Virus record (IMG/VR): IMGVR_UViG_3300030106_005509
Location: 32,001 to 96,000 of that record
Strand: one strand, 5' to 3'
DNA from: a virus
Length of the DNA: 64,000 nt
Position 1 is the stretch's first letter; every line of letters starts with the position of its first letter. Below, piece after piece: positions 1,490 through 22,200 of the stretch. A model generated the notes under the pieces. That model saw only the letters and a program-made list of their open reading frames with translations, had not been told where the DNA came from and made no database searches. The translations under genes and the position numbers were made by a program.

Positions 1490-1500
1490 TAAACGGAAAG

Positions 1501-1548
1501 TAGACGCGACGATAAACACAACTGTCTATCGGTGCGTCTATTTTTTTT
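1501..1548 (+). terminator. long hairpin plus T8: intrinsic terminator or attenuator just upstream of the TMP gene
   Basis: TAGACGCGACGATAAACA-caac-TGTCTATCGGTGCGTCTA (15/18 Watson-Crick pairs) followed by TTTTTTTT, then a GAGAGG RBS and the ATG at 1560. Confidence 0.7.
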
Positions 1549-1559
1549 GAGAGGTAGAT

Positions 1560-4500
1560 ATGGCTAAACCGTTTGTATTAACAACACAACTACAGATACA
1601 GATACCAAACCTTAACCAAGTTGTCAGTCAGCTTAACAAGGGGTTAGGTAATGTAAATGTTCCTGTTAATATTAATATACCTAAAAATGCCAACACTCAG
1701 CTTACTAATTTAAACAAAAACGTCAAGAACGCTGGAGCCTCTGCTCGCGGTGCAGCAAAAAACTTTGACTCCATGAGAAACTCTCTTAGGGGTGCGCTTA
1801 CTTATATAGCTAAGTACGACGCCGCTAGAGAGATTTTCAATCTATTTGCACAAACACTTAGAGATGGTGTTTCTTCTGCAATAGCTTTTGAAAAAGAAAT
1901 GGTTAAGGTCAGTCAAGTTACTGGTCAAACCATGAAACAATTAAGGGGTTTGGAGCGAGAGATAACCAGAGTTTCTACAGGCTTTGGGGTCTCTTCAGGA
2001 TCTTTAATTAAAACCTCTAGGGTATTAGCTCAGACTGGTATGTCTGCTAGAGATGCTAGGATAGCTCTTGAAGCCCTCGCTAAAACAACTCTGGCCGCTA
2101 CGTTTGACGATATTACATCTACCACAGAAACCGCCATTGCTGCAATGAGGCAGTTTGGTATAGCCTCGACAGACTTAGAAAAGACGCTTGGTAAAATTAA
2201 CTCCTTAGCAGCTAACTTTGCTGTTGAGGCTGGTGATATCGGCGTAGCCATCAGGCGTGCTGGTGGTGCGTTCAAAGCTGCCGGTGGAAGTCTTGATGAA
2301 CTTAATGCTCTCTTCACCGCTGTTCGTTCTACCACTCGTGAAACAGCGGAAACTATTGCTACTGGTTTTAGAACTATCTTTACCAGAATACAAAGACCAA
2401 AAACTATACAGTTCTTAAAACAGTTAGGTATAGAACTGCAAAATGTAGAAGGTCAGTTCGTAGGACCGTTTGAGGCTGTAAGAAAATTAAATATAGCTCT
2501 TAAAAGTCTAGACCCCAAAGACGTTAGATACTCACAGATCATTGAACAGCTTGGTGGTTTCAGGCAGGTCTCTAAAGTTATACCACTTATTCAACAATTT
2601 GGTCAGGCACAGAAAGCCCTAAATGTATCTCAGCAAGGTGGTACTAGTCTTGCTAGAGACGCTGCAAAAGCACAACAGAGTCTTGCAGTCCAGTTGACAA
2701 AGGTCAAAGAAGAATACATGGCTCTGTTTAGAGAGATATTTGGCGGTCAAGGAATGCAAACCGTCATAAAGACCACGCTTAAACTAGCCTCCGCTTTCGC
2801 TAGAGTTGTAGATTCTCTTTCTCCTATAATACCTCTTATTGCAACTATAGGTGCTGCCAAGTTAGGTCAGTTTGCTCTCTTTGGAAGTCTTGGCAGAGGT
2901 AGAAAACAGGGAGGTAGAATAAATAGGTTTGCTACTGGTGGTATGGTTCCCGGAAAAGGAAATAGCGATAGCGTTCCTGCCATGCTTACTCCCGGAGAGT
3001 TTGTAATACGTAAAAGTTCTGTAAGAACAATTGGCGCCAACCGTTTGCAAAAGATGAACAGATACGGTAACGGCGGAACTGTAGAAAGAGGTCAAGTACA
3101 ACGAGTCGCCAACAGAAAAGCTTCTCTAAAAAATAAATATGATATTGGCGAAGGTGGTATTCACGATAAATACAGAGCCAAATTGACAATTAAAACTTTC
3201 GACCCCAATGATAAAGAGGTGGGTCGCAAAGCTATTGAAGCCGAAGCAAAAGAAGCAAAAGCATATGGTCAAAAAAGATATCAAGCCCTTCTTAAAACCA
3301 GTGGGGATGAAAAGAGGTCTGCGATAAGAGCTGGTGCTTTGATGCGGAAAAGATTTGGTCTTTCAGGATTCATAGGTAAAAGGACAAGTGGTCAATCTAA
3401 ATTTTTTACGTCTAAAACTCCAAGACAATCACAAGGTGTTACGAACAACCTCGTGGGAGGAATCCATGAAAGAAATGTAAGTGGATGGGCAAAGAAAAAT
3501 TACAAGAGCGCAAGAGTTGGTAAGCTTCCAGACGCAGACGGAATGGATTTTAGAGTTGGTAACAGCGGCGTTCTCATCGAAGCGAAGAGCCTAAAGAGAA
3601 AATTAAATAGAGACGAGATCATAGCAAAAGGTTTACTCGCTAAAGCCGTCAGTAAAAACTATCAAGACAAAGTTTCGCAAGATGTTAATTTAAAAGAACT
3701 TGTATATGCTGAAGCGCCAGCGAGCCTGAAAAAATCTGGGTTTACCAAGAGGAATAGAGGAGGAGGCATATCATCAACAGATACAGTTCCCGCACTCCTT
3801 ACTCCCGGCGAATTCGTAATCAATAGAAAGTCCGCAGCTAAGATTGGTTACGGCAACCTTAACAATGCAAATAGATTTGGTAAAACACCTAAAGGATTTG
3901 CTGCTGGTGGAATAGTAGGCGTACAGAAATTCAATAACGGTGGAGAAGCAAGAAGTCCCCGTCTTGGTTTAGGCGTTTTTGTTGCACTACAAACAATATT
4001 GCCACAGTTAGCAGAAGCTTTTAAATCAGCCGATGGAGAAGTTACCGATCTTTCTATGGGGCTTGACGCGGCAAGCCAAGGCTTGATGACATTTGCTACA
4101 TTGAGCTTTGCTACTGGTGATTTGCTAGAAGGTTTTGGTGGCAAAGTAAAGTTTGCTGCAACAGGCTTATTGGCTGTAGGGGCAGCTGCATTTGCTGCTT
4201 ATCAGTATGAAAAACAAAGAGGGATGGAGAGAGAGAAGCGTGCTGTTAAAAACCTTGAAGAAGGAGGTTTTCAATCTGAAACGCGAACAGCAGGTCTTAG
4301 GCGTCAATTCATAGACGCTAGGAGGCAACAAACTGAGGGTGCTGGCGGAGCTGCTGGTCGTGTAGCTGGAGCTGCTGGTGGCGCTTATGCTGGAATGAAA
4401 GCTGGAGCATTAATAGGAGGATTGACTCCAGCTGGCCCAGTTGGTGCTTTGGTTGGAGGTATACTTGGAGCTATAGGAGGAGGTATCGCTGGATATTTTG

Positions 4501-7500
4501 GTGGCGGTGCTATTGGAGAAGCAATAGGAAAATTAAACTTTGATGAAGCTGGAGCTATAAGAGAGTTTAATGAAAAAGTTAAGTCGTTAAAACTTGGCGT
4601 GTCGATAGACGGGTTAACAAACTCCTTAAAAGCTTTTTCTGAAGGAAGAGCTTCTATTGGCGCTATAGCCTCTACTGTTAGAAGCGGTATAAAAAGTCTA
4701 CAAAGAGGCTTCTTTGATGTTAGCACCGAAGAAGGTCTTGAGCGATTTAGAGGCCAACTACAAAAAACTTTACCAGCACTTTCCGAGTATATAAACAAAG
4801 CTGCATCTTCTGCAAAAAGCATGGCTGAGTTTGATGCGATCATAGGTGACGAGGCTTTAAATGCATTCTCGCAACTTAGCGGACAAAGCATTCCAGAGTT
4901 AAGAAGACAAATACAAGAAAATATAGCGCAAAGAAAGAAAAGCGCCGCTGCTCAAAAAGCAAACATAGCAGCAATTCAAGCATCAAACAAAGTCCTCTAC
5001 AGAGCAAGAGATGCTGGTACTGCATTTATGGAACTAGAAAGAAGACTTGTTTCCTTCGACAATGTAATGTCTGGTGTTGAAGCTTCTATAAACAACACCT
5101 TCTCTGGGCTTTCGATTGGCAAGATCGCTCCCAACTTTGATGACATAACTAACATATTTGATATGTCTGCCTTTACTGCTCAGGTAGATAGCCTATCAGG
5201 TGTACTTGGAGAGTCGGGACAATCTTTGGGTCAAGACCTCAAAAACTTTGCCGCCCTTAACTCTCTTCTTCCTAACATATTAACAGAAGCCGCTGGAGAA
5301 ATTGGAATTGGTGGCGCTAGAGCTTCTGAAATTATAGAGTCTAAATTAATGGCTGCTGATCCGGGAGGGATTATAGGCGCTGAGTTTAGAAGGGTTATTG
5401 CACAAAGAGTTCAGGCCATTGCCGAGATGGGTGAAGGTGGCGAAGGTAAGTTTGCTAATAGAATAAGAACAGATATTGAAGGTGTTGTAAGAGACCTCAC
5501 TAAAGGCATGTCTGAAACTGCTGAAGCTTTCCAAAAAGCTGCTCAGTTTATAGATAGTGCAAATCAAAGATTAGCTAAGGCGTACAACTTAAGAACTCAA
5601 CTTGAGTTAAAACAAGCTAGACAGCTTTATGACATTATAGGTCTTCAGGCTGAAAACGCTGAAAGAATGTCAAAGGCCAGACGCCAACCAGTCAATGCTG
5701 ATGCTGATTTAAATACGTTTAATAACCAACAAAACGCAATCTTAAGCGGAACTGCCATAAGCGGCTTGGGTTCAAGCGTAACTATAGTTTCAAACGAATT
5801 TAACAGGCTAAAGCAAAGAATAAAAGAAAGTGATGCTGCACTTGCAAATCTCGGAATTGCAGCAGATTCTAGTGGTGACCTGTTAGAAAACAATAGAGCT
5901 TTAATTGACGAAAACGCAGCTCTAAAATCGCAATTTGAAAAAACAAAACAAGTTCTTGAGAACTATGCTAACGTACAAGCTAGAGTAGCAAAAGTTCAAG
6001 AAGAAATTGCAAATGCTCAAGCCAGACAAGATAAAGCAAAAGCTGTAGCTGAAAATATAGCCTTTGGTACAGATCAAGAAAGACTAAAAATCTTTAGAAG
6101 CTTTAAAGCCGCAGAAATTGTGGCTTCTAGAGGTCTAGCAGCCTTACCTCAACAATTTAGAGGCGATGCTAGGAACATGTTATCACAGTTTGCTGATGCT
6201 CCAATATTTGGAGGGAAAACAGGTCAGCAGATACTAGACCGAGAAACCGCCAATCTGTTTAAGCATTTTCCACCTAATATAAGAAAAGCTTTAATGGCGG
6301 AGTTTGCAGACGCAAGAACAGATGAGCAGAAGTTCTTAGATAGGCTAGACAAGATTCAGCAAGACGCTGTAAAAGCTCAATTTGCTTTCCTTGAGGGTAT
6401 GCGTGGGGATAGCAAAGACCTAAAAGAAACCATAGCAAAGCTCAACGCAACTCTTGCAAATGACTTAAGGACTATATTCCAACAACAAGAAAATAGAGCT
6501 TTGGCAAGAGAGGTGTCTGAGAGCAAAGGCACGCTAGCTAACTCTAAAGCCCAGCTTGAAAAGTTAAAAGAAATAAGAAGTGCTGGAATACCCGTTCAAG
6601 ACCCGGCTGTTTTAAACGCTGTTAGAAGCAATGTAGCTGGCATAAAAGCTCTCAAAGACGCTAGACAAAATCTTGCTAGGTTTACGGGAGCGCAGGAATT
6701 TGGTATCAATCTTAGAAGCCAAGAGAATAGATTTACAGGCTTTGCTGCGGCTGATTCAGGCAGAGACAATCTAAAAGCCATAAAAGTGTTAGGCGCACAA
6801 CTTAGACAGCAGTTTGGCGCAGATGTTGGAAACCAATTACTACAAAAAGCAATTGATGCTCTTGCTCAATTTAGGGTAGAGAACCCAGAGGCGACAGGCG
6901 CAGAAATAGCTAAGGTCATCGGAGACACGATTAGTGGCGCTGGACTATCGGGTGCTAGTAGCGCACAAGGCATTATTGATGAAACAATGGCAAATCTTAA
7001 TGCTGCTGGTCTTGGGCCATATGTAGATACATTGGTTAACAATGTAGACATGATATCTACAGCCTTGGCAGCATTTCCAAGTGAAGCAAGTTGGTCTTCA
7101 TTAGAAGAGTCTATAATAAGAACCACAACCACTATAAACAACGCAAACGCTGCTATTGCTGCTAATAGTCCGGCGGGAGCTGTTAAGCTGGCGTCAGGTG
7201 GAAGTATATTTTCTCCACACGGAACAGACACCGTCCCTGCTATGTTAACACCCGGCGAATTTGTCGTTAACAGAAAAGCTGCTCAAAGAAACATGGGTGC
7301 GCTGTCGGCTCTTAATAGTGGAAAAACCCAATACTTAGCTGGTGGTGGTAAAGTTGGTGATTACTTTGGAACCCAAGCCGTCAGAGAGGATGGCAAAAAA
7401 GTAGAAGATGTATGGGGGTCTCACAATAAAGCTGCTGAGGCAATTGCGTCGTGGTATAAAAAACAGACTTCAAGCAGTGGTGCAGGTTCTGTATTTGACT

Positions 7501-10500
7501 CATCCAGACACTACATGGCTAAAAAGTACGCTGACCAAGACATGGCTGGAATAGCCAAAAATATACTCAAGTCAAAAGACAACGGCGATGGAATCCCTAT
7601 GAAAGACCCTCAGTATAGGGCGATGGGGGCTGGAGCTGAAAGAAAATCTTATAGTGGTAAGTATGCAAACTTACCAAAAGCCGTTAAGAATTATTTTCAA
7701 AGCGGATTCTTAGGCGTCAATGGATATAGCTATGGCCAAATGAGTGGTATAGAAGCCTTAGACTATTTTAAGTACGGCACTAGAATGTTCATGGATGGTG
7801 CTGGGAGTGGTGCAACTGGCAGGAATTACGGCGGTCAAGCTCTAGGTGAATATAAGACTATTGGTAATTTACAAAAAGCAGCAGGAAAAAGCAGAGAGAA
7901 TCAAGCAAGCAAACTATACGAAAAAGTAGTAGAGTGGGCTGAAGATAAAGCCTTTAGTAGAAAAACAATGAAGGTTGGTCTCTATAGATTCCCGCTTAAA
8001 AAATCAAAAATAGAAGCCTATGATGATCCAGACACTAATATAAGTGTTGATGGGTTCACGTACCCTAATATTCAACCGGGTGACATATTAGAGAACGATC
8101 CGCAGCTATACGATCTATTCACAGGCGGCAGTCCGGGAGGCAGAAAGCTAGGAGTTGTTTCTTCTGGCTGGGTTCCTGTTGGAGACGCATCTGAAGCTGG
8201 TGCTGGATTTACAGGAGGTCAGTTTTTCCCCGGTAATGAGCTTGAAGAAGTTTACAAGAACTTAGAAGGGTGGATATTTAACTCAGGCTCTCAATATAGC
8301 AAATTTGTTAAAGAGTATCTCACCGGAAATGCTGGAAGAACTGAACTAGCTGTTGTTCGACAGGCTTTTGGTGAGTTTGACAAAATCTGGGGTGGGCTAA
8401 AGCCTAAAAATTGGAAAACCCCAGCAGGATATAATTTAGCAAACGAACCTAGAGCTAACTTTAGTTATATCAAAGGTCTTGTTGAACGTAGACTTTCAAC
8501 AACAGAAAAACAGCTTGCTGACAGTTTTCCATTTAATCCCATGGATATAGATACTTGGGGTTCAGCAATAACTAGCAACACAAGACCTGTCGCTGCGCTT
8601 CAAGAACATTCTCAAAATAGAAGTGATCTATATCAGAAGATGAAAGACTTCTATGCGCAGTTTAAGTTTAAAAATGCACAAGACCCAACGCTTGCATTTG
8701 GTAAAGCTTTTGAAATTGTTCAAGACGATCTTAAAACTGGAGTTAAGGGATACGACGCTAATAATTTTATAAGATTAGCCAACAAAAATGTAGCAGGTCA
8801 ACAAGACGAAAAACAAAGACGCGAAGAAAAGCTAGAGTCCGTCGCAACCGCTATGAAAAACGTGAAAGGTCTCCCTACTGGACTTGGGGCGTTATCAGAA
8901 CACATAGCACAATCCATTAAAGGATTCAAAGCAGCAGGCAACTTCACTAAAATTCCTATGTACGCTAAAAGATCGTCAGCATCTTTGAGAGGTGTTAGAG
9001 ACTTCTGGCAGGCTAAGGATTGGGGCCAAGGAGAGACAAAAGCTTTATATCCTTGGTTAAGCGCTTTGGCTACTGAATTAAGCAGATGGGTAAGCGGCGG
9101 TCTTGTTACAGGAGCTGGAGCTGATAAAAAGGGCGCGTTTATAAACCTAAACGACGCCGAGGTTTTCCGTCAATTAGCAAGAATACAAGACGCTAGAAAT
9201 CAAGGTAAGAATATAGAAGAAGGCGTTGAGGTATTAAAGAAAAACCAGCTGGGAGAAATAATCCAAAGCTTTGAAGGTCCTAGCTTAATGGGTCGTATAG
9301 CGAGGATAGCCAGAAATAAACCTAATGCTTGGTATAACGTAGGTTTTGGTGATGAGTTTCCTTACTATGGAACTTTTGGTTTCGACTCTGTATCAGAAGC
9401 TGTAGGCAAACTTCAAGAAGAAGTAAAGAGAAGTTTTGAAAATACAATACTCATATACAATGAGCAATTTAAAGCAGGTCAAAGACCATTCCAAGCGGCT
9501 AATAAAAATCCTCTACTAATGGCTACGGGTGGTAAAGTTCCCCAACGTTTAGCTTCTGGTGGCGGTGTCTTCGCGTCACGAGGAACCGATACAGTTCCGG
9601 CGATGCTTACACCGGGTGAGTTTGTTGTTAATAAAGATGCGGCCTCTAAAAACAAAGGAGCTTTACAAGCTATTAATAGCGGCCAAACACAATACCTTGC
9701 CGGTGGAGGTGAAGTGCAAGCATGGAAGATGAGAGGTTTTGAATCGACTGGAGGGGTTGGTAATAAAATACTTGCAAGAAACTGGCGGGATACAGCTGCA
9801 AAATACTATCCAGATAAAGAGTTGCCAATGTTATCAACTCCAGCAAGTATAAAATATTCTGGGCCAGACAGAAACCGTGCCGCCATGTCGATGGGCCACC
9901 TCATGCGTCTTGAAGAGATAGCTGGATGGGACATACTTAAATTTCGCGAATATAGAGATAAAATACTTAATTTAAAACTTGCAGACCTTGGGGTTGATCC
10001 TTATGAAATATATCCAAAAGCGCAATCAGGAAGTATTGATCATGAATACGAAGGACAGTCACAAAAACGAGATTTACCAGTTATTTCCAAAACGGGAGAA
10101 GTAAGGCATGTAAATGCTTTAAGAGGTCAGGCGGGACAAAAGCTATTTGGGCATCTGACTAGTGATCCTGTAGCTTATCTTGCGAACTTTAAAAGAGATG
10201 ACTTTTACGAGTATGGAGCAACTGGTGGATATACCGTTAGGGATGCTAACAGATACAGTAGTTTTGATTTAAGAGACAAAGCAAATCCCGGAGGAAAATA
10301 TCGTTTGGTAGGACCTCCTAAAGGTAAGCTACCATCAATTGGAAACATATTTCAGGGTATGCGTGCAAAAGATCAAAAGGCGAGTGGCGATGCTGCTGCG
10401 CTTGCAGATAAAGAGCTAATCGCAATGCAACAGCTAGTTGCAGCTAGAGGTAGCTTCTACGGAGGCGACAGATTTGGTGATATAGAGACCAAAGCCTTTG

Positions 10501-13500
10501 CGTATATGAATAGGGACATGGATGGTGGAGAGTTTGTAGATGTACTTTCCGAAAAAGCTTTATCCAGCATACTTGCTAAAAGCGATATATCGCCTGAAAA
10601 CAAAGAGATTCTAGGTAGAAAATGGGCGAATGTTCACACAAGATTTAAGCGCCAGACTAAGCATGTCATAAGGGGAACAGGGATGGTAGATCCCGAAAAC
10701 CCCGCTTTGACAAAATACGGAGGAGGCGCATCAAGTTTCGAGAGCAAGCTAACTCAATCCTACGCAAAGCTACGTCAGCTAGCGCAAGAGAATTCGGTAA
10801 GCGAAGCTCACCGGGTCAAACTTACGTATGGAGGGATGACTCCAGAACGTATGCGTGGCGGCTTAGAAGGTGACGAAAAGGCTATTATTCCTTTAAATGA
10901 TCCAAACATACTCGATATTATCGAATCGCAAGCAGGGTCTCACTGGAGAAACAACAGCCTGCTTCATATGACACAGCTGAAAAACGATTTGGAAAAAAGA
11001 GTAGCTGGCGGCTCTCTTGGTCCTGAAGACCTGTCGGGTGCGCAAGCGCGATTAAAACAATACGAAGAGTCGATGATATGGGCTAGGTATCTTGAAACGA
11101 TTAGGATGCAGCCCGGCCAATATGGTAAATACATACTTAGAGACATAGAACAACTTTCTGAAACAAGAGCTGGAGGTTTAGACAAACAAACCTTTAACCA
11201 AATGCAAGTGCAGAAAGAGCGTCAGGCAAGAGGTAGAAGTCTTGAACTGACAGCTAAGCATTCAGGACTTTCAGGACTGGTTGATTACTTAGGCTATGCC
11301 TTTAGTCCTTTTGAGCAATTTGAAGATCAAATGCTTAAAAGCAAAGTTGCTGAAATGAGGGATCAAGGATATTCAGAATCACAGATCGCCAGTTTTGTGG
11401 GCGAGGTGAAAAAACATAACTCAATCGCTACCGCCATGACAGAAAGTGTAGCGGCTAATCCGGTGACTAAAGCTCTCGGTAAAGTTGGCATCAGTATGGA
11501 GCAAGTGCTTGGGTCTGGATTGCAAGCACTAAAAGGTTTCTACCATCTATCAGCGGGTGAAGAAAGAGCAGCAGCAATAGAGTTTGGAGCTGCGGCAGTT
11601 AGTTTTGATGAAGGTCTTAACGCTCTTGAAGCTTTGCCCGATTGGAACAAACAGCATGTAAGCAAGGTTGAAGAAAGATGGAAGGCCGAACTTGGGTTAA
11701 GCGATAAAGAGGTTGGAAATAGATCACGCGCTCTTATGATGGCTGATATAGCATCTATGTTCGTTGTGCCTCCGGGACTGCTTGCAAAAGCTGTAACGGC
11801 GCCGATAAAGCTTGGGAGGAAATTGACACCAACAGTAGTAAGAGCAGCTATTGCTACACAAAGAACCGCCAAGAAAACTCTGTTCGGAGCTGGAGAAACA
11901 GGTGCGGCTTTATCTAGAGGTGGAAAATCTGGCGCAGGTTTGCCTAAATATATTGGTGACGATTTTGCAACCGCAGGGAAGCTAACACCGAATCAAATCG
12001 CAAAAGCGGAAGTAGTCACCGATTTACGTGGGCCTGTAAGACCAAAGTCGGGTGTGCAGCATAGCGCTAATAATCCAATTAGACAAAATGCCATTGCTAA
12101 TTATAACAGGGCAAATCCCGAATCAATGGTAAGTAAATTTGATGAGCTTCCAGCATGGGCTAAGCGAGACGCTGTGAATGCGGAGACCGCAGCACGAAAA
12201 CTTGGAGAAATGCGAGATAGTCTTGGCACTTTCTTCAAAAAAATGACAGACACAGACAAATCAGTCGTAAAAGGAGGTGTAACAGCTGACGCTCTTAGTG
12301 TAAATAAAAGAACAGGTGTAGCAACACCATACAAGAAAACTCCTTTCCAAGATGCGGATGCTATGTCGGGGGTAGTGTCAAAAGCTGATGCTGATGCAGC
12401 TATAACAAAAACTCTTAAAGACGCAGAAACTACCGGAATGATTGATGATATCTCTGCGGGTATAGACGCTGATAGAGCAATAGTTAGAAAAACAATTGAT
12501 GATGCTATTGTGCGTCCTAAAATTAGTCAGCAAGAAATTGTACGAGCCAACATGGAGCAAACTAGGATACCTCGTCATGGAGGAATAGTTGAAGGACCTG
12601 CTGGTCCAGTTGCGTTAGACCCTAGTCAAGCCGGTTCTCGCTTTGCGACAACAAAAGCTGATGTTATCTCTGTTGGAGGTGTTGGAGACGATGTTACTAG
12701 AGGTGCTACAAAAACTACAGGTCCACACTCACGGTTCGATGCTCACCTACAGTCTCAGAAAAAATTAGCAGACATAAGGTCGCAACTTAAAGATCCAAAC
12801 TTAACCCCTGAACGAATGGCAGCGCTTAAGCGTCTTGAGTCTCGTTATAGTGGCTCTATCCAAGCAAGAAGTACAAAAGCCACCGATATCTCGGGTCCCA
12901 CAGGTCTACAAGGCACAGGATTAAGTACTCGTCGTAATGTTATTGATAGGGCAGTGGCGAGAGAAAAAGTTGTCAATAACATTGTAGAATCAGCTACGGA
13001 CAACACGATTCCAAGAGCTACCCAGACCAAATTCACTCCTGCATCCACCGCCGCAGACCCTGCGACTACAGCAAAAACAAAAACTTTTGCTGGAAAGATG
13101 AATGAAAAAGGCCGAGGGTCAATACGTAAAGAAGATTTGGATACTGTTGAGATGAGGACTAAAACAAGTCCTGATGATGCGTATATAGATCAGGCGGCTA
13201 TGCAGCAACAAGCTATTAATATACAAAAACAGTTACAACAATTTGAGGCAACTCAAGTAGCATCGACTCCAACAACTGCTGGGGGTAGAAGTGCCAAACG
13301 AGCCGCAAATCAACAGGCAAGTGATAATGCGGCAGCACTGGCAGCAAAGAGGAAGGAGCTTTATGAAGCAGCAGGCTTTGGTTCTGAAAAAGAATATAGA
13401 AAAGCTCTCGAAAAAGCCCAAGCTAATTCAATGTTTGATACATCTAAAGGAAACGTAGATGTAAGAACAGCAGATGTACAGGCAAGTGATGAAGCAATCG

Positions 13501-14801
13501 CTCTTAATCGTGACAGGAAAAGACTTTTCAACATAAGAGAGAGACTCCAAGACAGAAGAAGTTTAAGTGGTGAAGAATTACAAAGATTGGAGCAACTGGA
13601 GTCAACTTATGATAAACAAGTTAAGTACGCGAAAGGTTTACTTGAAGGAAAAATAGCACGCGGTGAACGTCTTACTTACACGCGTAAGGCAAAACAAGCT
13701 GCGGAAGCTGAAGAAATGATAACGATTTACCGTGGTCTTGGAGATGATGGTGGCGAGGCCCTTTCCAATTGGTGGACTACAGACTTAGAAAAGGCAATGA
13801 GTTTCACAGGGAGAGAATCTGGGTCTTTGGTTTCTGTCAAAATTCCAAAATCAGCTGTGAAAAAATTTGATGTTAAGAGTCTTAACGAAAGCCTTCAACT
13901 GCAAAAACAAATGGATGCTGGTGGAATTTCTCAAGATGCATTTGATGCTTTGGGGGTTTCTAAGTCTAGGTTGGAAGAGATTGAAAGAATCGCGATTGCT
14001 GCTAAGGGCCAGAAGGAGACAGATTTTGGTCTAGAAATGTTCTTCTCACAAGATTTTCTTAATCAGTTGAAAGGCTCGAAAATGAAGAGGCTTGACGTTG
14101 CTGATTTGGGTCTGGGTCCGACAGCGAAGAGGCCAAAAATGCCGAAAGGTGCGCAAGGATCTATGCCTTCCCCTGAACAGATGAAAGAGTTTACGAAGCT
14201 CAACCGTAAGGTCACTGCGGACCATTTTAAACGTAAAGAAACAATATTAGATGCGGCGAAAGATTTATTTAAGACTCAGGGATATGCTAAGGGTGGCATT
14301 GTATCTTACTTTAATTCTGGTGGACCGGCTATGGGAACAGATACGATTCCTGCAATGCTCACACCCGGAGAGTTTGTTGTAAGAAAAGCCGCTGTAGATT
14401 CTGTAGGTGTAGAAACACTTAGAGCTATAAATAATATGGGCAAAGGCTCAACAAGTTCTAAGCCTAAGAAAAGAGCTGGAGTTAACTACTTAGCTAATGG
14501 TGGTCAAGGTGAAGCCTCTGGGTTGAGAATGCCAACTCTAGATGTAAAAGACTTTAATACAGCTATAAGTAAATTTGATAGCTCTGTTGATAGACTTGAA
14601 AAAATATTCGGCAACGGCATACAAATGACGCACAATTTTGAGGACATGAATGTTATTGTAACAGTAAACGGAAACTTTGGTGATGATGACGGTGAATTAA
14701 GTAACGGAATGCAGAGAAGAATTAACAGAGAAGTTAGAAAGGGTATAAATGACTTTATAGACAGGTCATTCCCAGATATACCTAGAATGGACATAGCTTA
14801 A
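1560..14801 (+). CDS. giant tail tape measure protein (4413 aa) with repeated GG...LTPGEFV modules and embedded nuclease-like and ADP-ribosyltransferase-like domains
   Basis: N-terminal TP901-family TMP core (FEKEMVKVSQVTG...LAQTG...AGG); TM helices and a glycine zipper at about 3960-4530; long Ala/Gln-rich coiled coil; five copies of a module resembling the lambda gpH C-terminal FATGG...GEFV motif. Confidence 0.9.
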   Translation: MAKPFVLTTQLQIQIPNLNQVVSQLNKGLGNVNVPVNINIPKNANTQLTNLNKNVKNAGASARGAAKNFDSMRNSLRGALTYIAKYDAAREIFNLFAQTLRDGVSSAIAFEKEMVKVSQVTGQTMKQLRGLEREITRVSTGFGVSSGSLIKTSRVLAQTGMSARDARIALEALAKTTLAATFDDITSTTETAIAAMRQFGIASTDLEKTLGKINSLAANFAVEAGDIGVAIRRAGGAFKAAGGSLDELNALFTAVRSTTRETAETIATGFRTIFTRIQRPKTIQFLKQLGIELQNVEGQFVGPFEAVRKLNIALKSLDPKDVRYSQIIEQLGGFRQVSKVIPLIQQFGQAQKALNVSQQGGTSLARDAAKAQQSLAVQLTKVKEEYMALFREIFGGQGMQTVIKTTLKLASAFARVVDSLSPIIPLIATIGAAKLGQFALFGSLGRGRKQGGRINRFATGGMVPGKGNSDSVPAMLTPGEFVIRKSSVRTIGANRLQKMNRYGNGGTVERGQVQRVANRKASLKNKYDIGEGGIHDKYRAKLTIKTFDPNDKEVGRKAIEAEAKEAKAYGQKRYQALLKTSGDEKRSAIRAGALMRKRFGLSGFIGKRTSGQSKFFTSKTPRQSQGVTNNLVGGIHERNVSGWAKKNYKSARVGKLPDADGMDFRVGNSGVLIEAKSLKRKLNRDEIIAKGLLAKAVSKNYQDKVSQDVNLKELVYAEAPASLKKSGFTKRNRGGGISSTDTVPALLTPGEFVINRKSAAKIGYGNLNNANRFGKTPKGFAAGGIVGVQKFNNGGEARSPRLGLGVFVALQTILPQLAEAFKSADGEVTDLSMGLDAASQGLMTFATLSFATGDLLEGFGGKVKFAATGLLAVGAAAFAAYQYEKQRGMEREKRAVKNLEEGGFQSETRTAGLRRQFIDARRQQTEGAGGAAGRVAGAAGGAYAGMKAGALIGGLTPAGPVGALVGGILGAIGGGIAGYFGGGAIGEAIGKLNFDEAGAIREFNEKVKSLKLGVSIDGLTNSLKAFSEGRASIGAIASTVRSGIKSLQRGFFDVSTEEGLERFRGQLQKTLPALSEYINKAASSAKSMAEFDAIIGDEALNAFSQLSGQSIPELRRQIQENIAQRKKSAAAQKANIAAIQASNKVLYRARDAGTAFMELERRLVSFDNVMSGVEASINNTFSGLSIGKIAPNFDDITNIFDMSAFTAQVDSLSGVLGESGQSLGQDLKNFAALNSLLPNILTEAAGEIGIGGARASEIIESKLMAADPGGIIGAEFRRVIAQRVQAIAEMGEGGEGKFANRIRTDIEGVVRDLTKGMSETAEAFQKAAQFIDSANQRLAKAYNLRTQLELKQARQLYDIIGLQAENAERMSKARRQPVNADADLNTFNNQQNAILSGTAISGLGSSVTIVSNEFNRLKQRIKESDAALANLGIAADSSGDLLENNRALIDENAALKSQFEKTKQVLENYANVQARVAKVQEEIANAQARQDKAKAVAENIAFGTDQERLKIFRSFKAAEIVASRGLAALPQQFRGDARNMLSQFADAPIFGGKTGQQILDRETANLFKHFPPNIRKALMAEFADARTDEQKFLDRLDKIQQDAVKAQFAFLEGMRGDSKDLKETIAKLNATLANDLRTIFQQQENRALAREVSESKGTLANSKAQLEKLKEIRSAGIPVQDPAVLNAVRSNVAGIKALKDARQNLARFTGAQEFGINLRSQENRFTGFAAADSGRDNLKAIKVLGAQLRQQFGADVGNQLLQKAIDALAQFRVENPEATGAEIAKVIGDTISGAGLSGASSAQGIIDETMANLNAAGLGPYVDTLVNNVDMISTALAAFPSEASWSSLEESIIRTTTTINNANAAIAANSPAGAVKLASGGSIFSPHGTDTVPAMLTPGEFVVNRKAAQRNMGALSALNSGKTQYLAGGGKVGDYFGTQAVREDGKKVEDVWGSHNKAAEAIASWYKKQTSSSGAGSVFDSSRHYMAKKYADQDMAGIAKNILKSKDNGDGIPMKDPQYRAMGAGAERKSYSGKYANLPKAVKNYFQSGFLGVNGYSYGQMSGIEALDYFKYGTRMFMDGAGSGATGRNYGGQALGEYKTIGNLQKAAGKSRENQASKLYEKVVEWAEDKAFSRKTMKVGLYRFPLKKSKIEAYDDPDTNISVDGFTYPNIQPGDILENDPQLYDLFTGGSPGGRKLGVVSSGWVPVGDASEAGAGFTGGQFFPGNELEEVYKNLEGWIFNSGSQYSKFVKEYLTGNAGRTELAVVRQAFGEFDKIWGGLKPKNWKTPAGYNLANEPRANFSYIKGLVERRLSTTEKQLADSFPFNPMDIDTWGSAITSNTRPVAALQEHSQNRSDLYQKMKDFYAQFKFKNAQDPTLAFGKAFEIVQDDLKTGVKGYDANNFIRLANKNVAGQQDEKQRREEKLESVATAMKNVKGLPTGLGALSEHIAQSIKGFKAAGNFTKIPMYAKRSSASLRGVRDFWQAKDWGQGETKALYPWLSALATELSRWVSGGLVTGAGADKKGAFINLNDAEVFRQLARIQDARNQGKNIEEGVEVLKKNQLGEIIQSFEGPSLMGRIARIARNKPNAWYNVGFGDEFPYYGTFGFDSVSEAVGKLQEEVKRSFENTILIYNEQFKAGQRPFQAANKNPLLMATGGKVPQRLASGGGVFASRGTDTVPAMLTPGEFVVNKDAASKNKGALQAINSGQTQYLAGGGEVQAWKMRGFESTGGVGNKILARNWRDTAAKYYPDKELPMLSTPASIKYSGPDRNRAAMSMGHLMRLEEIAGWDILKFREYRDKILNLKLADLGVDPYEIYPKAQSGSIDHEYEGQSQKRDLPVISKTGEVRHVNALRGQAGQKLFGHLTSDPVAYLANFKRDDFYEYGATGGYTVRDANRYSSFDLRDKANPGGKYRLVGPPKGKLPSIGNIFQGMRAKDQKASGDAAALADKELIAMQQLVAARGSFYGGDRFGDIETKAFAYMNRDMDGGEFVDVLSEKALSSILAKSDISPENKEILGRKWANVHTRFKRQTKHVIRGTGMVDPENPALTKYGGGASSFESKLTQSYAKLRQLAQENSVSEAHRVKLTYGGMTPERMRGGLEGDEKAIIPLNDPNILDIIESQAGSHWRNNSLLHMTQLKNDLEKRVAGGSLGPEDLSGAQARLKQYEESMIWARYLETIRMQPGQYGKYILRDIEQLSETRAGGLDKQTFNQMQVQKERQARGRSLELTAKHSGLSGLVDYLGYAFSPFEQFEDQMLKSKVAEMRDQGYSESQIASFVGEVKKHNSIATAMTESVAANPVTKALGKVGISMEQVLGSGLQALKGFYHLSAGEERAAAIEFGAAAVSFDEGLNALEALPDWNKQHVSKVEERWKAELGLSDKEVGNRSRALMMADIASMFVVPPGLLAKAVTAPIKLGRKLTPTVVRAAIATQRTAKKTLFGAGETGAALSRGGKSGAGLPKYIGDDFATAGKLTPNQIAKAEVVTDLRGPVRPKSGVQHSANNPIRQNAIANYNRANPESMVSKFDELPAWAKRDAVNAETAARKLGEMRDSLGTFFKKMTDTDKSVVKGGVTADALSVNKRTGVATPYKKTPFQDADAMSGVVSKADADAAITKTLKDAETTGMIDDISAGIDADRAIVRKTIDDAIVRPKISQQEIVRANMEQTRIPRHGGIVEGPAGPVALDPSQAGSRFATTKADVISVGGVGDDVTRGATKTTGPHSRFDAHLQSQKKLADIRSQLKDPNLTPERMAALKRLESRYSGSIQARSTKATDISGPTGLQGTGLSTRRNVIDRAVAREKVVNNIVESATDNTIPRATQTKFTPASTAADPATTAKTKTFAGKMNEKGRGSIRKEDLDTVEMRTKTSPDDAYIDQAAMQQQAINIQKQLQQFEATQVASTPTTAGGRSAKRAANQQASDNAAALAAKRKELYEAAGFGSEKEYRKALEKAQANSMFDTSKGNVDVRTADVQASDEAIALNRDRKRLFNIRERLQDRRSLSGEELQRLEQLESTYDKQVKYAKGLLEGKIARGERLTYTRKAKQAAEAEEMITIYRGLGDDGGEALSNWWTTDLEKAMSFTGRESGSLVSVKIPKSAVKKFDVKSLNESLQLQKQMDAGGISQDAFDALGVSKSRLEEIERIAIAAKGQKETDFGLEMFFSQDFLNQLKGSKMKRLDVADLGLGPTAKRPKMPKGAQGSMPSPEQMKEFTKLNRKVTADHFKRKETILDAAKDLFKTQGYAKGGIVSYFNSGGPAMGTDTIPAMLTPGEFVVRKAAVDSVGVETLRAINNMGKGSTSSKPKKRAGVNYLANGGQGEASGLRMPTLDVKDFNTAISKFDSSVDRLEKIFGNGIQMTHNFEDMNVIVTVNGNFGDDDGELSNGMQRRINREVRKGINDFIDRSFPDIPRMDIA
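2901..3077 (+). repeat. TMP spacer module, copy 1
   Basis: RKQGG-RINR-FATGG-MVPGKGNSDSVPAMLTPGEFVIRK...RYGNGG. Confidence 0.9.
3750..3944 (+). repeat. TMP spacer module, copy 2
   Basis: RNRGGG-ISSTDTVPALLTPGEFVINRK...FAAGG...FNNGG. Confidence 0.9.
7188..7349 (+). repeat. TMP spacer module, copy 3
   Basis: LASGG-SIFSPHGTDTVPAMLTPGEFVVNRK...LNSGKTQYLAGGG. Confidence 0.9.
9519..9710 (+). repeat. TMP spacer module, copy 4
   Basis: MATGG...LASGG-GVFASRGTDTVPAMLTPGEFVVNKD...INSGQTQYLAGGG. Confidence 0.9.
14283..14504 (+). repeat. TMP spacer module, copy 5
   Basis: YAKGG...FNSGG-PAMGTDTIPAMLTPGEFVVRK...YLANGG. Confidence 0.9.
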
Positions 14802-14812
14802 AGGAATAACCA

Positions 14813-17290
14813 ATGGCTGATTCTTCAAAAGATCTCGGCTTAGTCATGTTTGGAAGCGTTGCTCGCATGACGGAGAGGGAGATATTTCCAAGCGGTGTCA
14901 ATAGGGAATTTGGATACTGGCGAGGAAGTGAAAACAAAAAGATCGTAAATAAGTTTAATAAGCTTTATATGCCTCTTGAGGGTAGCGGTCTGTATTCTGG
15001 TTCTCCTGTTGTAAAAGCTAAAAAAGATACTGCAAGCAATGCTAGTGGATTAAGTTGTGACCCAGAAGGTTGCGCTTGGATGTTTGATGGTTCTGATTGG
15101 TCTTTATATGAAGACCTATGTGGGTTAAGACCTACAGCATACGATGCTACTTGTGGATGCACAGAACCTCCTGAAGGCGGTGGTTTTATGGGCGACATAA
15201 AATCGACTGCATGTGTTGGCGGTGTTGGTGGAGGTGGAGGTTCAACCGCTGATGGAGACTCTGCTGGTGACGGATTTGCTGTATGGCAAAGAGCCGGAGA
15301 CCTCGTAGATATAATTGGTCAAGAGGCTATACAAGAAAGATGTCTATTCCTTTCCCAACGAGCTAATGTAAATCTTGGAAGCGGCGTTAGTCTAGCAAAC
15401 GCAAAAGGGTTTACTGTCTATTCAAAAATACTACCTAGTGGTGATATCAGTGATACAATCATCCTAGCTCAACACAAAGAAAACCCAGCAAAATTCGTTC
15501 TTGGTTGTGACTTTGATGGTAGGTTCTATATTCGTGCCGATGGAAATATAGAAGGTGCAAACACTGCTTTTACTGCTAAGTCAGCAAAGAGTTATCAAGA
15601 ATACAAATATCCTGCGCATGTAGTTGGTGTTTTTGCTTCTGGAGACTCAAAACTAAAGATATATGTAAATGGTATTAATGAGGGCGAGTCTCAGGTATTT
15701 AAAAGAGATCTAAGCGGTGCTGACAATACAGACATTATTTTAGGTAAAAGAGGTTTTGCTATATCTGAACGTGGTTACACGGGATGGGTAGATGAAGTAG
15801 GTATTAGTAGCAAGAGCTTTAGTGACGAAGAAGTTAGTCAGTTTTATAATAGCACTTTTGGCGTTACAGATATTATTAAAAGTTACTCTCCTCCTACAGG
15901 AGCTGCTTTTGACGCTGGATTATTTGCTGCTGACTTTGATGCTAAAGATAAAGACTTCATAGAATTTACCGTAGCTTCTGGTAATAGCGAAGGCGCTCTT
16001 GGTGGAGCTTTTGACCCAAATCTTTGGGGTAATTCTAATTACGCTGTATCTTCTGTGTTAAGTATTAGGATTGAAGAAGCGCCGCCAAACTTCCATCAGT
16101 TAGATACCGTAGCTGTTGATGTGTGGGTTGAAAATGCCACAAACCATCCAAGCGGAGCAAAATTCACAGCAGCGCTAGTGCATAAAGATGCAGAAAAACC
16201 TATCAATACAAGCAGGAGTCTCAATTGGTACGCTAGTGGCGTAATGATTCCTTCTGGAGATAGACAAAAAATAACTTTTGAAGCGCCACTAAATGGGTCG
16301 GATACTTTCTTCCCAGACGGCGCTATCCCTTTCAAAGATGATTTTGGAAAACATAATTTAGACCTTACAGTATTCTATCCAGAGTACGACCATCCATACG
16401 ATGCTGAATTCAAAATATATTCTACCAAAATAAGATATACGTCGTTTGACAGGTATCTTGGATTCAACAACATTGACGGATCTATATTAAATGGAGCGTC
16501 TTTAGGATTAAATAACGGTCAAGACCAACCCCTGTTTGTGGATGGGGGTTTGAAGGCTAAGGCTTCTGGTGATTTGAGACTTACTGTGTTTGCAGACAAA
16601 GCAGCACAGAGTATGCCTTTGGTTTTAAACCAAGATGCTAAAACTAGCATGGGCGATACGGGTCATGGGTATCTAACTGCAAATGGCGCGGTCTTGATAA
16701 ACCAGAATATGAACCTTAGTCTTCTTGGCGCTATTGAAAGAATGACTAAGACGTTGTTTATTGGTGGTAAAGTATTCACCGTAAACAACAACTTAAATTT
16801 GGAAACTAAGGGTGGTGTTAATATATATCCATATATACAAAAAACACTTCCCATCTTAATTGCTACAGAGCCGGGTTCTGGAATTTTTGAAGCTAGCATG
16901 AATCTAGCTCTCCCCAAAGTCAATCCGGCTAAGTTAAATGTTGACTTCCCTCAGTTTATTGAGGGTGAGCGACCAGTTGCAACAATGCCTCTGTATGTAA
17001 AAACAGCAGAGAGTGGAGTTACAACATTCCCGATATCATTATTAGGACCTTCTGTATATAAGAAGAATGAATCTATGAATCTTTATATGCAACCTGATAG
17101 TCCACAATTTTTAGCCAGAGGAAAGAGGCTTTCTGGGTCTCCCACAGTTAAGCAAAATAGTAATTTTGATTTAGTAACAGTAGGTAAAGCTACTTCAAGT
17201 GGAACTATGGATTTAGTGATAACATCCGTAAAGGCTAGTGGTAATTGGAATACAACTTTATACAGTCAAGGTTTTAGAACTACAGATTAG
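14813..17290 (+). CDS. LamG/concanavalin A-like domain virion protein (tail fibre or adhesin-like)
   Basis: LamG signature HVVGVF...LKIYVNG...IILGK...YTGWVDEVGISSKSFSDEEVSQFY; AAGGA RBS; C-terminal short beta-strand repeats. Confidence 0.75.
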   Translation: MADSSKDLGLVMFGSVARMTEREIFPSGVNREFGYWRGSENKKIVNKFNKLYMPLEGSGLYSGSPVVKAKKDTASNASGLSCDPEGCAWMFDGSDWSLYEDLCGLRPTAYDATCGCTEPPEGGGFMGDIKSTACVGGVGGGGGSTADGDSAGDGFAVWQRAGDLVDIIGQEAIQERCLFLSQRANVNLGSGVSLANAKGFTVYSKILPSGDISDTIILAQHKENPAKFVLGCDFDGRFYIRADGNIEGANTAFTAKSAKSYQEYKYPAHVVGVFASGDSKLKIYVNGINEGESQVFKRDLSGADNTDIILGKRGFAISERGYTGWVDEVGISSKSFSDEEVSQFYNSTFGVTDIIKSYSPPTGAAFDAGLFAADFDAKDKDFIEFTVASGNSEGALGGAFDPNLWGNSNYAVSSVLSIRIEEAPPNFHQLDTVAVDVWVENATNHPSGAKFTAALVHKDAEKPINTSRSLNWYASGVMIPSGDRQKITFEAPLNGSDTFFPDGAIPFKDDFGKHNLDLTVFYPEYDHPYDAEFKIYSTKIRYTSFDRYLGFNNIDGSILNGASLGLNNGQDQPLFVDGGLKAKASGDLRLTVFADKAAQSMPLVLNQDAKTSMGDTGHGYLTANGAVLINQNMNLSLLGAIERMTKTLFIGGKVFTVNNNLNLETKGGVNIYPYIQKTLPILIATEPGSGIFEASMNLALPKVNPAKLNVDFPQFIEGERPVATMPLYVKTAESGVTTFPISLLGPSVYKKNESMNLYMQPDSPQFLARGKRLSGSPTVKQNSNFDLVTVGKATSSGTMDLVITSVKASGNWNTTLYSQGFRTTD

Positions 17291-19245: not shown

Positions 19246-22200
19246 ATGCCAATAAATTCATCTTATGATAAAGAATATCTGTTTCAACAGACTTTTCTGG
19301 GTGCATCTATAAAAAGCTGGAACACAAGTATTGGGTTCAACAGTAACAGTACCACCATGAATATTATATTGGTAGAAGATCAATTTTTCTACAGGGGTGC
19401 TAACGCTGTAGATGAAGGATACCATATCTGGGATGAAGATGGCTTTCCAGATGGAGCAGACAAAAATTACACAGCAACCGGAGACAAATTTTTCGCACCT
19501 GTGACCGGTGAGCCTGCTTACTTCACATATTATAAATCATCTGTTCCTAGCTGTGGAGCTTGTTATGACACAAGCGTTGGAAAGAAAGACGACATTCTTT
19601 CTAACTATACAGAAAAAAGCGGAAACGAAAGCGAAGCTGATTGTAAAGCTGCTGGTTTTACTTGGATTAAACCGTCTAACTCAAAGAAGGCAAAGCAAAA
19701 AGAAAGAGGGATAATAACAGAAGTATTTGAGTTTAACGGAATAGTAAGCTCATATAAAAAATACAGTGGAACTGACGGTGTTAGATATGAAGTTATTTTA
19801 GAAGATCCAAGAAAGATGCTTGAAGGTTCTCAAGTTATTTTGGGTGGCTATGCAGGAACCACACCCCCTCCAGACAGATCTTTTGGAATGATAGATAAGT
19901 TTGACGATGGAGACTATTCTAATGTAAGAACTCTAAGCAATGGCTATATGGGTTATTACAACATAATAAACGCCTTTGGTTACTATGAGCATTTTAACTT
20001 TGGAACAGCTTTAACAAATGCAAATGGCTTCTTGTGGAGAAGAGCATTAGACGCATGTCAAAAAATATTGCAGGGAAAATATGATATAGTTGGAGGCGCG
20101 GACTTAGAGAGAATGGGTGGTCCTCTCTATTACATGAGAGATACAAGAAGCGCCCAACAAATAAAAGCCAGTGAACCTATTGATGTTCATAGGTATAAAG
20201 TTGATTTGTCAGAACTAGATAATCTCAGTGACACTAATGGCGGCTTGCTTCCTGACCTGTATAGATTGCAAGGACAAAAAGCCTCATTGCTATCAATAGT
20301 ACAAACTATATGTGAAACAGCAGGCGCTGACTTCTTTGTTAAGCTTGACAAAACTACAGCTAGAACTAAAAAAGATGATGATAGAGAATATTCCGGCGTT
20401 GTTAAAATTGTGCCGCTTCCTAAGAACGCTCCGATTGAATACGGAAAGATTAGAAAAGTAATAGAAGAAGCTCACACAGATGAAGCTTGTGGGGCGACTG
20501 CTACACACCCTTGGGCAAATAGAATATCCAGCGAAAGCATGGGTTATGAATTTAGAGACCCTCTCTGTGGCGTAATGATGCTTGGTGACAAAAGAACAAA
20601 AGTTGCTGGCGTTACCGCTATGGGTTGGTTTCCATCTATTAATGGGGGTATGATTCGTGAAAGATTTGCTGTTGGTTCTGACAAGCTAAAAGAAATGCTT
20701 CCTGCTGTAGAGCATGACGGAGTAACCTTTGCTAATCCCGGATGGTATCATCCATTCAATCTTCCATACACAAAAGGCTTAAGTGCAGATCAAGTTGGAT
20801 TAGGCGTTCTACCTCCCGCTGCAAATATACCTTACTCTCCAGCTCCTGCGTCAAATGATGACTATATTGCTTGGGGCAAAGCTTTAGTGCCGGACATGCA
20901 TACTGACACTGGTGCTGCAAATTTAGCAGGACCTTTAGCTCCGGGAACTAAAGCTTCATTTCAACCTTCAGGAGCTTGGGGTGATGGACTATTAGATATA
21001 TTTCCTTGTTGGGGTTTTCTAAAAGGCATTGACAGGATGCAAGGACCTTTTGCAAATATAAACTTGCTACAGTTAAAAGCTGAAGGTATTCCAATCAAAG
21101 GGGGATTTGCTGACGACAATGTTTACAATGATTATGATACTAATGAAGGAATATTTACTATATTTGAATACTATAATCCGTATTCTTCAGTTCCTATATT
21201 TGGAAAAAGTAAAACTATTACTTCTGTTGGTGGCGTTAGTCAGTTAGTAAAAAATCATTTAGTTTACAGTGTGTCAACGGCTCTAGAATTTAATGAAGAC
21301 CAAGCACTTAGGCGAGCTATGAGACAGCCAAAATGCTTTGTAGGCCCCGGAGGGATTGCAAACGCACCCTGTTGGCAAGACGACGTTTTACCCGGCTCAC
21401 CAATCCCTGTTGAATACCCTGTATGCAAATCAAATCCTTATCATGCAGCTTGCTACACCCACGGAAAACCGGGACCAACTTACAGATATAAGCTAATAAA
21501 TCAAAAGTGGGACAATAGAAGTACTATATATGTAAACCCAGATTGCGTTTGTAAAGAGAGAGATCTTATAAATGGAGATTGGGAACACAAGCATTGTCAT
21601 GCTGATTATACAGAAGACAAAAACGGAGTTAAAACGGCGCTTCCTAAAGACCAACAAACGACAGCTGGTGATTACTATAAGCTGGGAGGAAGTAATTCAA
21701 AGCTCGCTAGATTTTGTTTTGAAAATCCTGTTTACCAAGTTCCAAGAATCCAAGGCGGAAAAGCTATGGTTCAGGCAGTTAAAAATCCTGAAGTTTATAA
21801 AGGCTGGTTGAAATCTTGGGACTGGTACATACCTGCTGTAAATGTTATTCCCATTGATTTAGCAGGAACAGGTTGGACTGGAGGACCAATAGGATCAAAT
21901 GGAAACTACTCTCATTTCTACTACACTACAGTAACAGCTTTAAGGGCAGCTATAAAAGGTTACAAAGACTGGTTTGAATATACAACAATTTTTGAGCCTT
22001 GGCTTCATTGTAAATTTAATCTAGACAGCTGTCCGATGACCTTAGAGATGGATATTGAAAATCACAACAGAAATGATTTAAGTGGAGGTATACAAGCGGA
22101 ACTTTTTCAAGACCCAGAGACAGGTAAGGAAACAGCCGGAGACATAACATACGGAACAGGATATGTTGTCCATAGTTTCAATAGATGGCTTGGACAAAAC

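Follow-up and report, generated by a model that had tools for sequence, protein, structure and literature searches.

What would a tailed phage gain from a tape measure protein (TMP) in which one short module is repeated five times and long segments between the repeats differ even from those of close relatives? This question is raised by a 64,000-nucleotide (nt) stretch of viral DNA (IMG/VR record IMGVR_UViG_3300030106_005509, positions 32,001 to 96,000; referred to below as the window), which lies on a single contig of 136,411 bp from an uncultured tailed phage and in which the gene at 1560..14801 on the plus strand forms one uninterrupted open reading frame (ORF) of 4413 amino acids (aa). TMPs are usually regarded as rulers and channel formers, at most with a small wall-degrading domain. 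A preliminary description of the window, made from its letters alone, had treated the gene as a TMP built as a modular polyprotein, whose repeated modules bracket enzymes that are delivered with the DNA. The reading favored here, to which a probability of roughly 0.55 is given, is that a conserved chassis carries three exchangeable slots between joints of the type present in gpH, the TMP of phage lambda, and that the segments held in these slots enter the host as passengers.

The identity of the protein as a TMP was confirmed by PF10145 in Pfam (aa 135-333, E 7.7e-26, 91.6 bits against a cut-off of 33.2) and TIGR01760 in NCBIfam (aa 98-433, E 2.5e-33, 115.5 bits against a cut-off of 28.8), both far above the curated cut-offs, and on these family matches it is a TP901-type TMP; scans of the whole protein against Pfam, NCBIfam, and PHROGs found no families beyond the TMP and module ones. 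Judged from database searches, the phage is remote from cultured phages, because a megablast search of 50,697 phage records with the gene gave no nucleotide match and an IMG/VR pattern scan with this TMP (P0001) gave 13 pattern matches and no relative. A tblastn search of aa 1904-4413 against the phage records matched three records, each at the zone of module 5 only.

The repeated module, also called the joint below, is ∼70 aa long, has the core DTVPAMLTPGEFV, and is present in five copies. The pattern D[ST][VI]PA[ML]LTPGEFV[VI] matches exactly five times (aa 470-483, 741-754, 1890-1903, 2677-2690, and 4261-4274, beginning at nt 2967, 3780, 7227, 9588, and 14340), in agreement with the positions proposed earlier; at a sixth bare 'GEFV' (aa 2990) the remainder of the motif is absent, and six-frame translation of the contig revealed the module nowhere outside the TMP. 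A profile of the module delimits the five copies as follows:

2907..3125, plus strand: module 1 (aa 450-522), found by profile with a domain E of 1.4e-30
3732..3956, plus strand: module 2 (aa 725-799), found by profile with a domain E of 1.1e-23
7173..7355, plus strand: module 3 (aa 1872-1932), found by profile with a domain E of 9.6e-25
9522..9731, plus strand: module 4 (aa 2655-2724), found by profile; at its downstream edge, identity to a relative, P0003, falls from 76-100% to 24%
14286..14519, plus strand: module 5 (aa 4243-4320), found by profile; 91.7% nucleotide identity to a metagenome contig, L005, starts at 14281

The stretches outside the modules measure 449, 202, 1072, 722, 1518, and 93 aa, and the earlier estimates of ∼220, ∼720, and ∼1520 aa for three of them were near the profile-based 202, 722, and 1518 aa. 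Each copy has the layout GG...(A/S)GG...GTDTVPAMLTPGEFV(V/I)N..A......L..(I/M)N...GG, and a Gly-rich stretch precedes every joint. The term 'GG-flanked' was apt, as Gly-Gly stands on both sides of every module; the pair is enriched in the envelopes, which contain 18 of the 63 GG in 8% of the length, and it is not specific to them, being common in other parts of the protein as well. Because the five copies of the core (55 nt) share no more than 69-80% identity at the DNA level, the modules are, on this comparison, old copies held by selection on the protein, neither a recent repeat nor a product of chance. Prediction of a three-copy module complex (28-row alignment) gave a score of 0.01, which is no evidence either way.

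The module is also a constant feature of a large protein family. A whole-length search over proteins of 2427-7723 aa returned 258 proteins at E<=0.001 from 1518 scored candidates, and the set used here, drawn from the best 120 of these 258, consists of P0001 and 119 relatives (P0002, identical to P0001, was left out; counts include P0001 unless stated). The 120 proteins measure 2,461-7,512 aa and together contain 610 modules, with 2-9 in every protein and five as the commonest count (35/120), and the core residues are 84-100% conserved across the 610 copies. The gaps that separate modules are as long as 2246 aa, their quartiles being 321, 822, and 1101, and the modules thus do not form a series of regularly placed nodes. 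In 92 of the 120 proteins, as in gpH, 60-200 aa separate the last module from the C-terminus.

Searched against the PDB, the five-module profile reached lambda gpH (8iyk_H) at residues 733-779 with an E of 0.15, and a family profile compared with gpH in a two-sequence search matched residues 732-787 with an E of 2e-8; the same five-module profile located two internal modules, at 966-1011 and 1414-1459, in the TMP of mycobacteriophage Douge (gp16). Profile searching of TMPs, which the preliminary description had suggested, in this way recovered the element both in all the giant TMPs of the set and in gpH and Douge, and with it two of the earlier proposals were upheld, namely that gpH bears a single related module near its C-terminus and that this gpH-type element has been multiplied to five copies here. 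By its profile matches, the module is a gpH-type element and an old component of TMPs. Lambda gpH resembles the present TMP in this element, in the order of Gly-rich region, joint, and short C-terminal docking tail, and in containing no cysteine (Cys), but it has one joint in 853 aa where this TMP has five in 4413 aa together with large inserts, and its N-terminal family differs from the TP901-type found here.

In a tblastn search with the module, 117 of the 50,697 phage records were matched at 150 places, and among the matches listed (45 of the 117 records) most are annotated as tape measure, with at most two places each. Douge gp16, Gordonia phages, gp180 of a Nodularia phage, and Microcystis phage Mic1 have the same joint in one or two copies inside annotated TMPs, but the records listed do not include the five-joint, three-slot layout, and these proteins have no similarity to the present TMP outside the joints. 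The Nodularia phage, vB_NspS-kac65v151, is a cultured cyanosiphovirus of ∼147 kb whose 3282-aa TMP (gp180, L006 6409-16257) has two adjacent modules at aa 883-921 and 956-1004, and it could become a laboratory model for giant module-bearing TMPs. The joint is not confined to siphovirus TMPs, because the identical core GTDTVPAMLTPGEFV stands in gp213 of the Synechococcus T4-like cyanomyophage S-SCSM1 (L002 4243-7095), a 950-aa virion protein annotated as lysozyme in the baseplate-hub cluster, in which the family profile finds one module. T5 pb2 was considered as a further carrier and rejected, as the module profile finds no joint in it.

The chassis into which the joints are set would comprise the five joints themselves, a TP901-type N-terminal core, a body with transmembrane (TM) and presumably helical segments, and a C-terminal docking tail:

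1560..2906, plus strand: N-terminal core of TP901 type (aa 1-449), closed by a hydrophobic stretch (aa 409-444); BLAST matches in 119/120, 92% identical to P0004
3957..7172, plus strand: TMP body (aa 800-1871), with TM-like stretches at aa 862-881 and 950-982 followed by a long Ala/Gln/Glu-rich segment; found in 119/120 by iterative search
14520..14798, plus strand: C-terminal tail (aa 4321-4413), 100% identical to P0003 and 97% to P0004; found in 79/120 by iterative search

The body is Ala-rich and aromatic-poor in composition. Module 5 stops 93 aa short of the TMP's C-terminal end, and the tail that follows it is likely to be a docking piece for the tail tip, by analogy with the structures of lambda, T5, JBD30, and Douge. 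The slots between the joints, which would hold lineage-specific segments, are occupied as follows (ART, ADP-ribosyltransferase):

3126..3731, plus strand: slot 1 insert (aa 523-724), with homologues in 5/119 relatives and an E...G-x-D-F...h-E-x-K motif
7356..9521, plus strand: slot 2 insert (aa 1933-2654), rich in aromatic residues and Gly, with BLAST homologues in 4/119 relatives at 90, 37, 29, and 24% identity
9732..14285, plus strand: slot 3 insert (aa 2725-4242), composite, with a variable N-part, a TM-like stretch at aa 3391-3412, a conserved island, a charged part of low complexity, and a final 190 aa that are unique
12017..12404, plus strand: conserved island in slot 3 (aa ∼3486-3615), 91.5% identical to L005 in nucleotides with flanks lacking similarity, and 75% identical to P0004 in amino acids over 162 aa
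13710..14198, plus strand: ART-like stretch in slot 3 (aa 4051-4213), unverified, with IYRG...WWTT...GLEMF

By comparison within the family, slots 1-3 are clade-specific, and the chassis and modules are common to the relatives: slot 1 occurs in 6/120 proteins, slot 2 in 5/120, slot 3 in 4/120, and the final ∼190 aa of slot 3 only in P0001 itself (1/120). Aligned with P0004, the TMP is 92-100% identical as far as module 1, drops to 12-52% within slot 1, and returns to 80-96% at module 2 and beyond. With P0003 the figures are 76-100% through module 4, 24% directly behind it, 8-32% for aa 4050-4224, and then 92-100% for module 5 and everything after it. The conserved island of slot 3 retains 75-82% or more amino acid identity with P0003 and P0004. 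At the DNA level the comparison of relatives consists of one locus, L005, a metagenome contig that encodes the last 928 aa of a TMP resembling P0004 and, downstream of it, proteins 99.5% and 93.3% identical to those of this phage; the 99.5% identical protein (L005 2799-5276) is the counterpart of the 825-aa Laminin_G_3 protein encoded next to the TMP. Nucleotide identity to L005 is 91.7% for 6.9 kb from 14281, at the edge of module 5, and upstream of this point only the 388-nt conserved island matches. Since such a contrast between slot 3 and its flank cannot arise by gradual divergence, slot 3 is concluded from these alignments to have been exchanged between relatives, with break points at module edges. 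The preliminary description had proposed to compare inter-module segments with modules and body in close relatives, and the outcome was as it expected: the modules, N-terminal core, body, and C-terminal tail are conserved, and the segments between modules vary strongly from one close relative to another, breaking at the module edges. Cassette exchange is established by these comparisons.

What the slots encode is less plain. In slot 1, the motif E...G-x-D-F...(12-15 aa)...h-E-x-K is invariant in six diverged proteins (6- and 4-sequence alignments). The AlphaFold2 prediction (4-row alignment) reached a mean predicted local distance difference test (pLDDT) score of 37.4, an unreliable model that places helix-strand-strand-helix at the motif, and the segment has no Pfam match (E<=10) and no PDB profile match. 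The earlier label 'nuclease-like insert' is supported by the conserved E/D/ExK residues, which stand in PD-(D/E)xK order, and gains nothing from the Pfam and PDB searches or the fold prediction; judged by its motif (aa ∼630-700), slot 1 is most likely a PD-(D/E)xK-type nuclease. Slot 2 is unlike the body in composition, with 8-15 aromatics per 100 residues against 3-10. No stand-alone slot 2 homologue of 397-1264 aa was present among 8000 scored candidates, neither a PDB profile match nor a usable ESM Atlas match was obtained, and the AlphaFold2 model (6-row alignment) had a mean pLDDT of 39.9. The fold prediction suggested earlier, as run for slots 1 and 2, settled neither a cargo fold nor a helical tape.

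In slot 3, a query of aa 4030-4245 against 1.84 billion representatives returned one true homologue of the ART-like stretch, P0123 (813 aa, E 3.5e-4), which shares YRG, WWT, and a late E-M with it, and a follow-up profile search for longer proteins returned P0123 again and nothing else. P0122 was dropped as a homologue, as nine weak repeat matches together made up its score. The stretch was not found in any of the 119 relatives and had no Pfam match at E<=10 and no PDB profile match of note. ESM Atlas searches with slot 3 gave leads that all scored <0.9, some of them to ART-PolyVal or TNT clusters, with those bearing on an ART at 0.78-0.85, and these are leads only; that aa 4051-4213 are an ADP-ribosyltransferase is a guess. 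Pfam at E<=10 on seven sub-segments gave nothing near the cut-off, a PDB sequence search with the whole protein gave nothing useful, and no effector domains were recognized within the TMP by Pfam or NCBIfam. The proposal of enzyme cargo in the 722- and 1518-aa segments gained no support: the analyses tied neither segment to an enzyme fold or family. At the level of the family, as judged from domain matches, enzymes do sit between modules and slots can hold folded enzymes; for example, Pfam's ADPrib_exo_Tox scores 26.8 bits in P0080 (cut-off 23.4) over aa 1303-1513, which lie between joints at ∼627 and ∼1811, and P0083 carries an SNase family by precomputed annotation.

According to the favored reading, the whole polypeptide would lie within the lumen of the tail tube and specify a very long tail. 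By analogy with lambda, T5, JBD30, and Douge, it would dock by its C-terminal tail and leave ahead of the DNA, so that the slot segments would probably arrive as passengers in the envelope or cytoplasm of the host. The joint is best seen as a docking or processing joint that may double as a recombination boundary, on the model of lambda gpHC, where Gly-rich cut region, joint, and docking tail follow one another. Several findings weigh against this reading. Slot lengths are near-constant at very low identity (722, 717, 747, and 706 aa for slot 2; 1518, 1487, and 1435 aa for slot 3), which fits a length constraint, as expected for a ruler. For none of the slots did Pfam, NCBIfam, PHROGs, the PDB, or AlphaFold2 supply an enzyme family, a solved relative, or a confident fold, and the TMP contains no peptidase domain (Pfam) and no HExxH motif. 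Among the best 120 relatives, 10 have any Pfam family besides PF10145, and enzyme families occur in 2 of those 10. In addition, the whole TMP, joints included, scales with tail length in cultured phages, and in Thermus phage P23-45 the enzyme remains in full-size gp96 in virions, so that delivery need not involve cutting (PMC10770324, in part). The N-terminal half of slot 3 has a distant colinear homologue in P0005 (22% identity over 727 aa, E 1e-11), and because of this colinearity and the near-constant slot lengths the exchange resembles one between old alleles of a single slot.

These lengths bring forward the alternative that the protein is a ruler only, in which case the slots would be extra tape for a tail of ∼690 nm, free to vary since only length and solubility are constrained, with alleles shuffled between conserved joints and no separate function in the host. 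The preliminary description had set part of the protein aside as cargo on the ground that a ruler of ∼650 nm would be too long, and this argument is contradicted by cultured phages, in which 0.155-0.159 nm of tail corresponds to each TMP residue: the 400-nm tail of Mic1 goes with a TMP of 2572 aa that has a single C-terminal module (0.156 nm per aa), the 269.6-nm tube of Douge with one of 1699 aa that has two internal modules (0.159 nm per aa), and the 180 nm of JBD30 with one of 1158 aa (0.155 nm per aa). Likewise, P23-45 pairs a 5,002-aa TMP with an 'extraordinarily long tail' (PMC10770324, in part). If 0.155-0.159 nm per residue holds, the tail of the present phage would be ∼690 nm long. 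Apart from this scaling and the preserved slot lengths, the lack of enzyme family matches in the slots and their low-confidence, mostly helical AlphaFold2 models would suit a pure ruler. It is nevertheless somewhat unlikely: the slot 1 E/D/ExK motif is kept across six diverged proteins, the slot 2 composition is different from that of the body, and a conserved island within slot 3 and the ART (Pfam-verified) and SNase domains of relatives indicate that slots can house folded enzymes. Contents of the lumen probably add to tail length, and cargo and ruler are therefore not alternatives.

A true polyprotein, in which the joint is a processing or hand-over signal and cuts at several joints, during maturation or after ejection, release separate effectors, is unlikely. 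Its best precedent is lambda gpH itself, for which the earlier statement that it is proteolytically processed agrees with the literature: gpH is ejected ahead of the DNA and forms a trans-envelope channel, and it matures to gpH* and gpHC by a cut at about residue 690-710, in a Gly-rich region just upstream of the joint at 732-787, with only residues 818-849 of gpHC resolved, bound to gpI (PMC12617516, in part). The lambda joint lies within the unresolved start of gpHC and near the cut, and its link to cutting is one of proximity only; in the available part of that report the exact site and the protease are not identified. The Gly-rich stretch before every joint of the present TMP and a core conserved to 84-100%, as a recognition site would be, are likewise in keeping with processing. 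T5 pb2 is cleaved after R1127, which releases the muralytic pb2C (PMC10038345, in part), and this frees an enzymatic piece from a TMP; pb2 is, however, cut without having a joint, and cutting and joint are therefore separable. The Douge TMP, with two internal joints, is described simply as a trimer of 1,699 residues that fills the tube, and P23-45 gp96 is full-size in virions. The present TMP contains no peptidase either. If the polyprotein explanation were true, the protein would be a tail-borne delivery system with a changeable kit of ready-made anti-host or anti-defence effectors (nuclease-like, ART-like, and others).

That the variable slots are envelope-crossing or evasion determinants rather than enzymes, diversified by host exclusion, immune recognition, or the matching of membrane partners, would accord with mosaic exchange despite neighboring tail genes that are 93-99.5% identical, with the TM-like stretch in slot 3, and with the action of superinfection-exclusion proteins and inner-membrane host factors on TMPs, but the motif of slot 1, like the ART and SNase domains found in relatives, speaks for enzymes, and this explanation is quite improbable.

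The count of no Cys in 4413 aa given earlier is correct, and ∼73 would be expected from the 1.65% Cys in the other 137 ORFs of the 136-kb contig; the further claim that the neighboring tail proteins are Cys-rich was overstated, as the downstream proteins have 0.97-1.29% and two upstream ORFs 0 and 0.31%, below the genome mean. In the family, 106 of the 120 proteins have no Cys, and the total is 46 Cys in 512,257 residues. Lambda gpH (L003, 0 Cys in 853 aa), T5 pb2 (L004, 0 Cys in 1219 aa), and the 3282-aa Nodularia phage TMP are also Cys-free. Because it is common to these TMPs, Cys-freeness may be a general TMP trait, neither special to this protein nor a mark of cargo, and it is consistent with crossing of the envelope in an unfolded state.

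Enzyme-bearing and processed TMPs are already known. T5 pb2 is like the present TMP in having no Cys, and it is a TMP processed so that an enzymatic piece separates, but it has no joint by the module profile and has one cut and one small domain (PMC10038345, in part). The TMP of P23-45, gp96, is fused to a virion RNA polymerase that is part of the full-size protein in virions; it is giant like the present TMP, its enzyme acts in the host after ejection, and the tail is extremely long, but the enzyme is N-terminal and the available text reports no repeated joints (PMC10770324, in part; gp96 was not scanned with the module profile). The polyvalent proteins of phages and conjugative elements embody the same concept, several effector activities in one DNA-delivered polypeptide, but their separation is inferred to proceed via built-in metallopeptidases, which are absent from the present TMP, and that paper makes no mention of tape measure proteins (Iyer et al., 2017; PMC5512222, in part). 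The single gpH joint is known as well; the multi-joint, slot-swapping layout was not found in print in the literature covered in part here, PMC7824862 included. The TMP is one member of a large uncultured family in which a lambda-type element has been multiplied and segments of 200-1,500 aa are traded between phages that are near-identical in their tail genes. If these segments act in the host, the tail lumen would be a second route besides the capsid by which variable proteins are delivered at the first moment of infection, and the joints would be a handle for finding such cargo in metagenomes; if they are only tape, the family still illustrates how very long tails evolve by cassette exchange. 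In either case it offers a simple test bed for the unmapped cleavage of lambda gpH.

The setting of the gene resembles a tail gene cluster in its arrangement, with two overlapping small ORFs 5' of the TMP gene and large co-oriented ORFs 3' of it (825, 645, 1471, 610, and 2984 aa), and the synteny is kept in L005. Searches of the flanking ORFs against PHROGs and Pfam gave no tail family, the sole match being a Laminin_G_3 (ConA-like) domain in the 825-aa protein (14813-17290) directly 3' of the TMP. The 1471-aa (19246-23661) and 2984-aa (25509-34463) ORFs, which are co-oriented and have no PHROG or Pfam match, are presumably tail fibre or baseplate proteins, and the former is 71% identical to its 1408-aa counterpart in L005. 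The two upstream ORFs, at 145-546 (133 aa) and 512-1489 (325 aa), overlap at the site where the tail assembly chaperones G/GT are expected, and neither has a family match. A −1 frameshift of the lambda G/GT type was considered; ORF 512-1489 is in the +1 frame relative to 145-546 and has its own ATG, and no obvious slippery site was seen in the overlap. Between these ORFs and the TMP gene lies one further feature:

1499..1548, plus strand: hairpin followed by U8, terminator-like, 11 nt 5' of the TMP start codon; minimum free energy −23 kcal/mol, z −4.73, with 0/200 shuffles as stable

A consensus scan for terminators, whose rule admits loops of 3-8 nt only, passed over this hairpin. It might be an attenuator that lowers TMP expression relative to the upstream tail genes. 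At 36000-64000, starting ∼1 kb past the end of the tail genes, minus-strand ORFs of one orientation follow each other closely in a long run.

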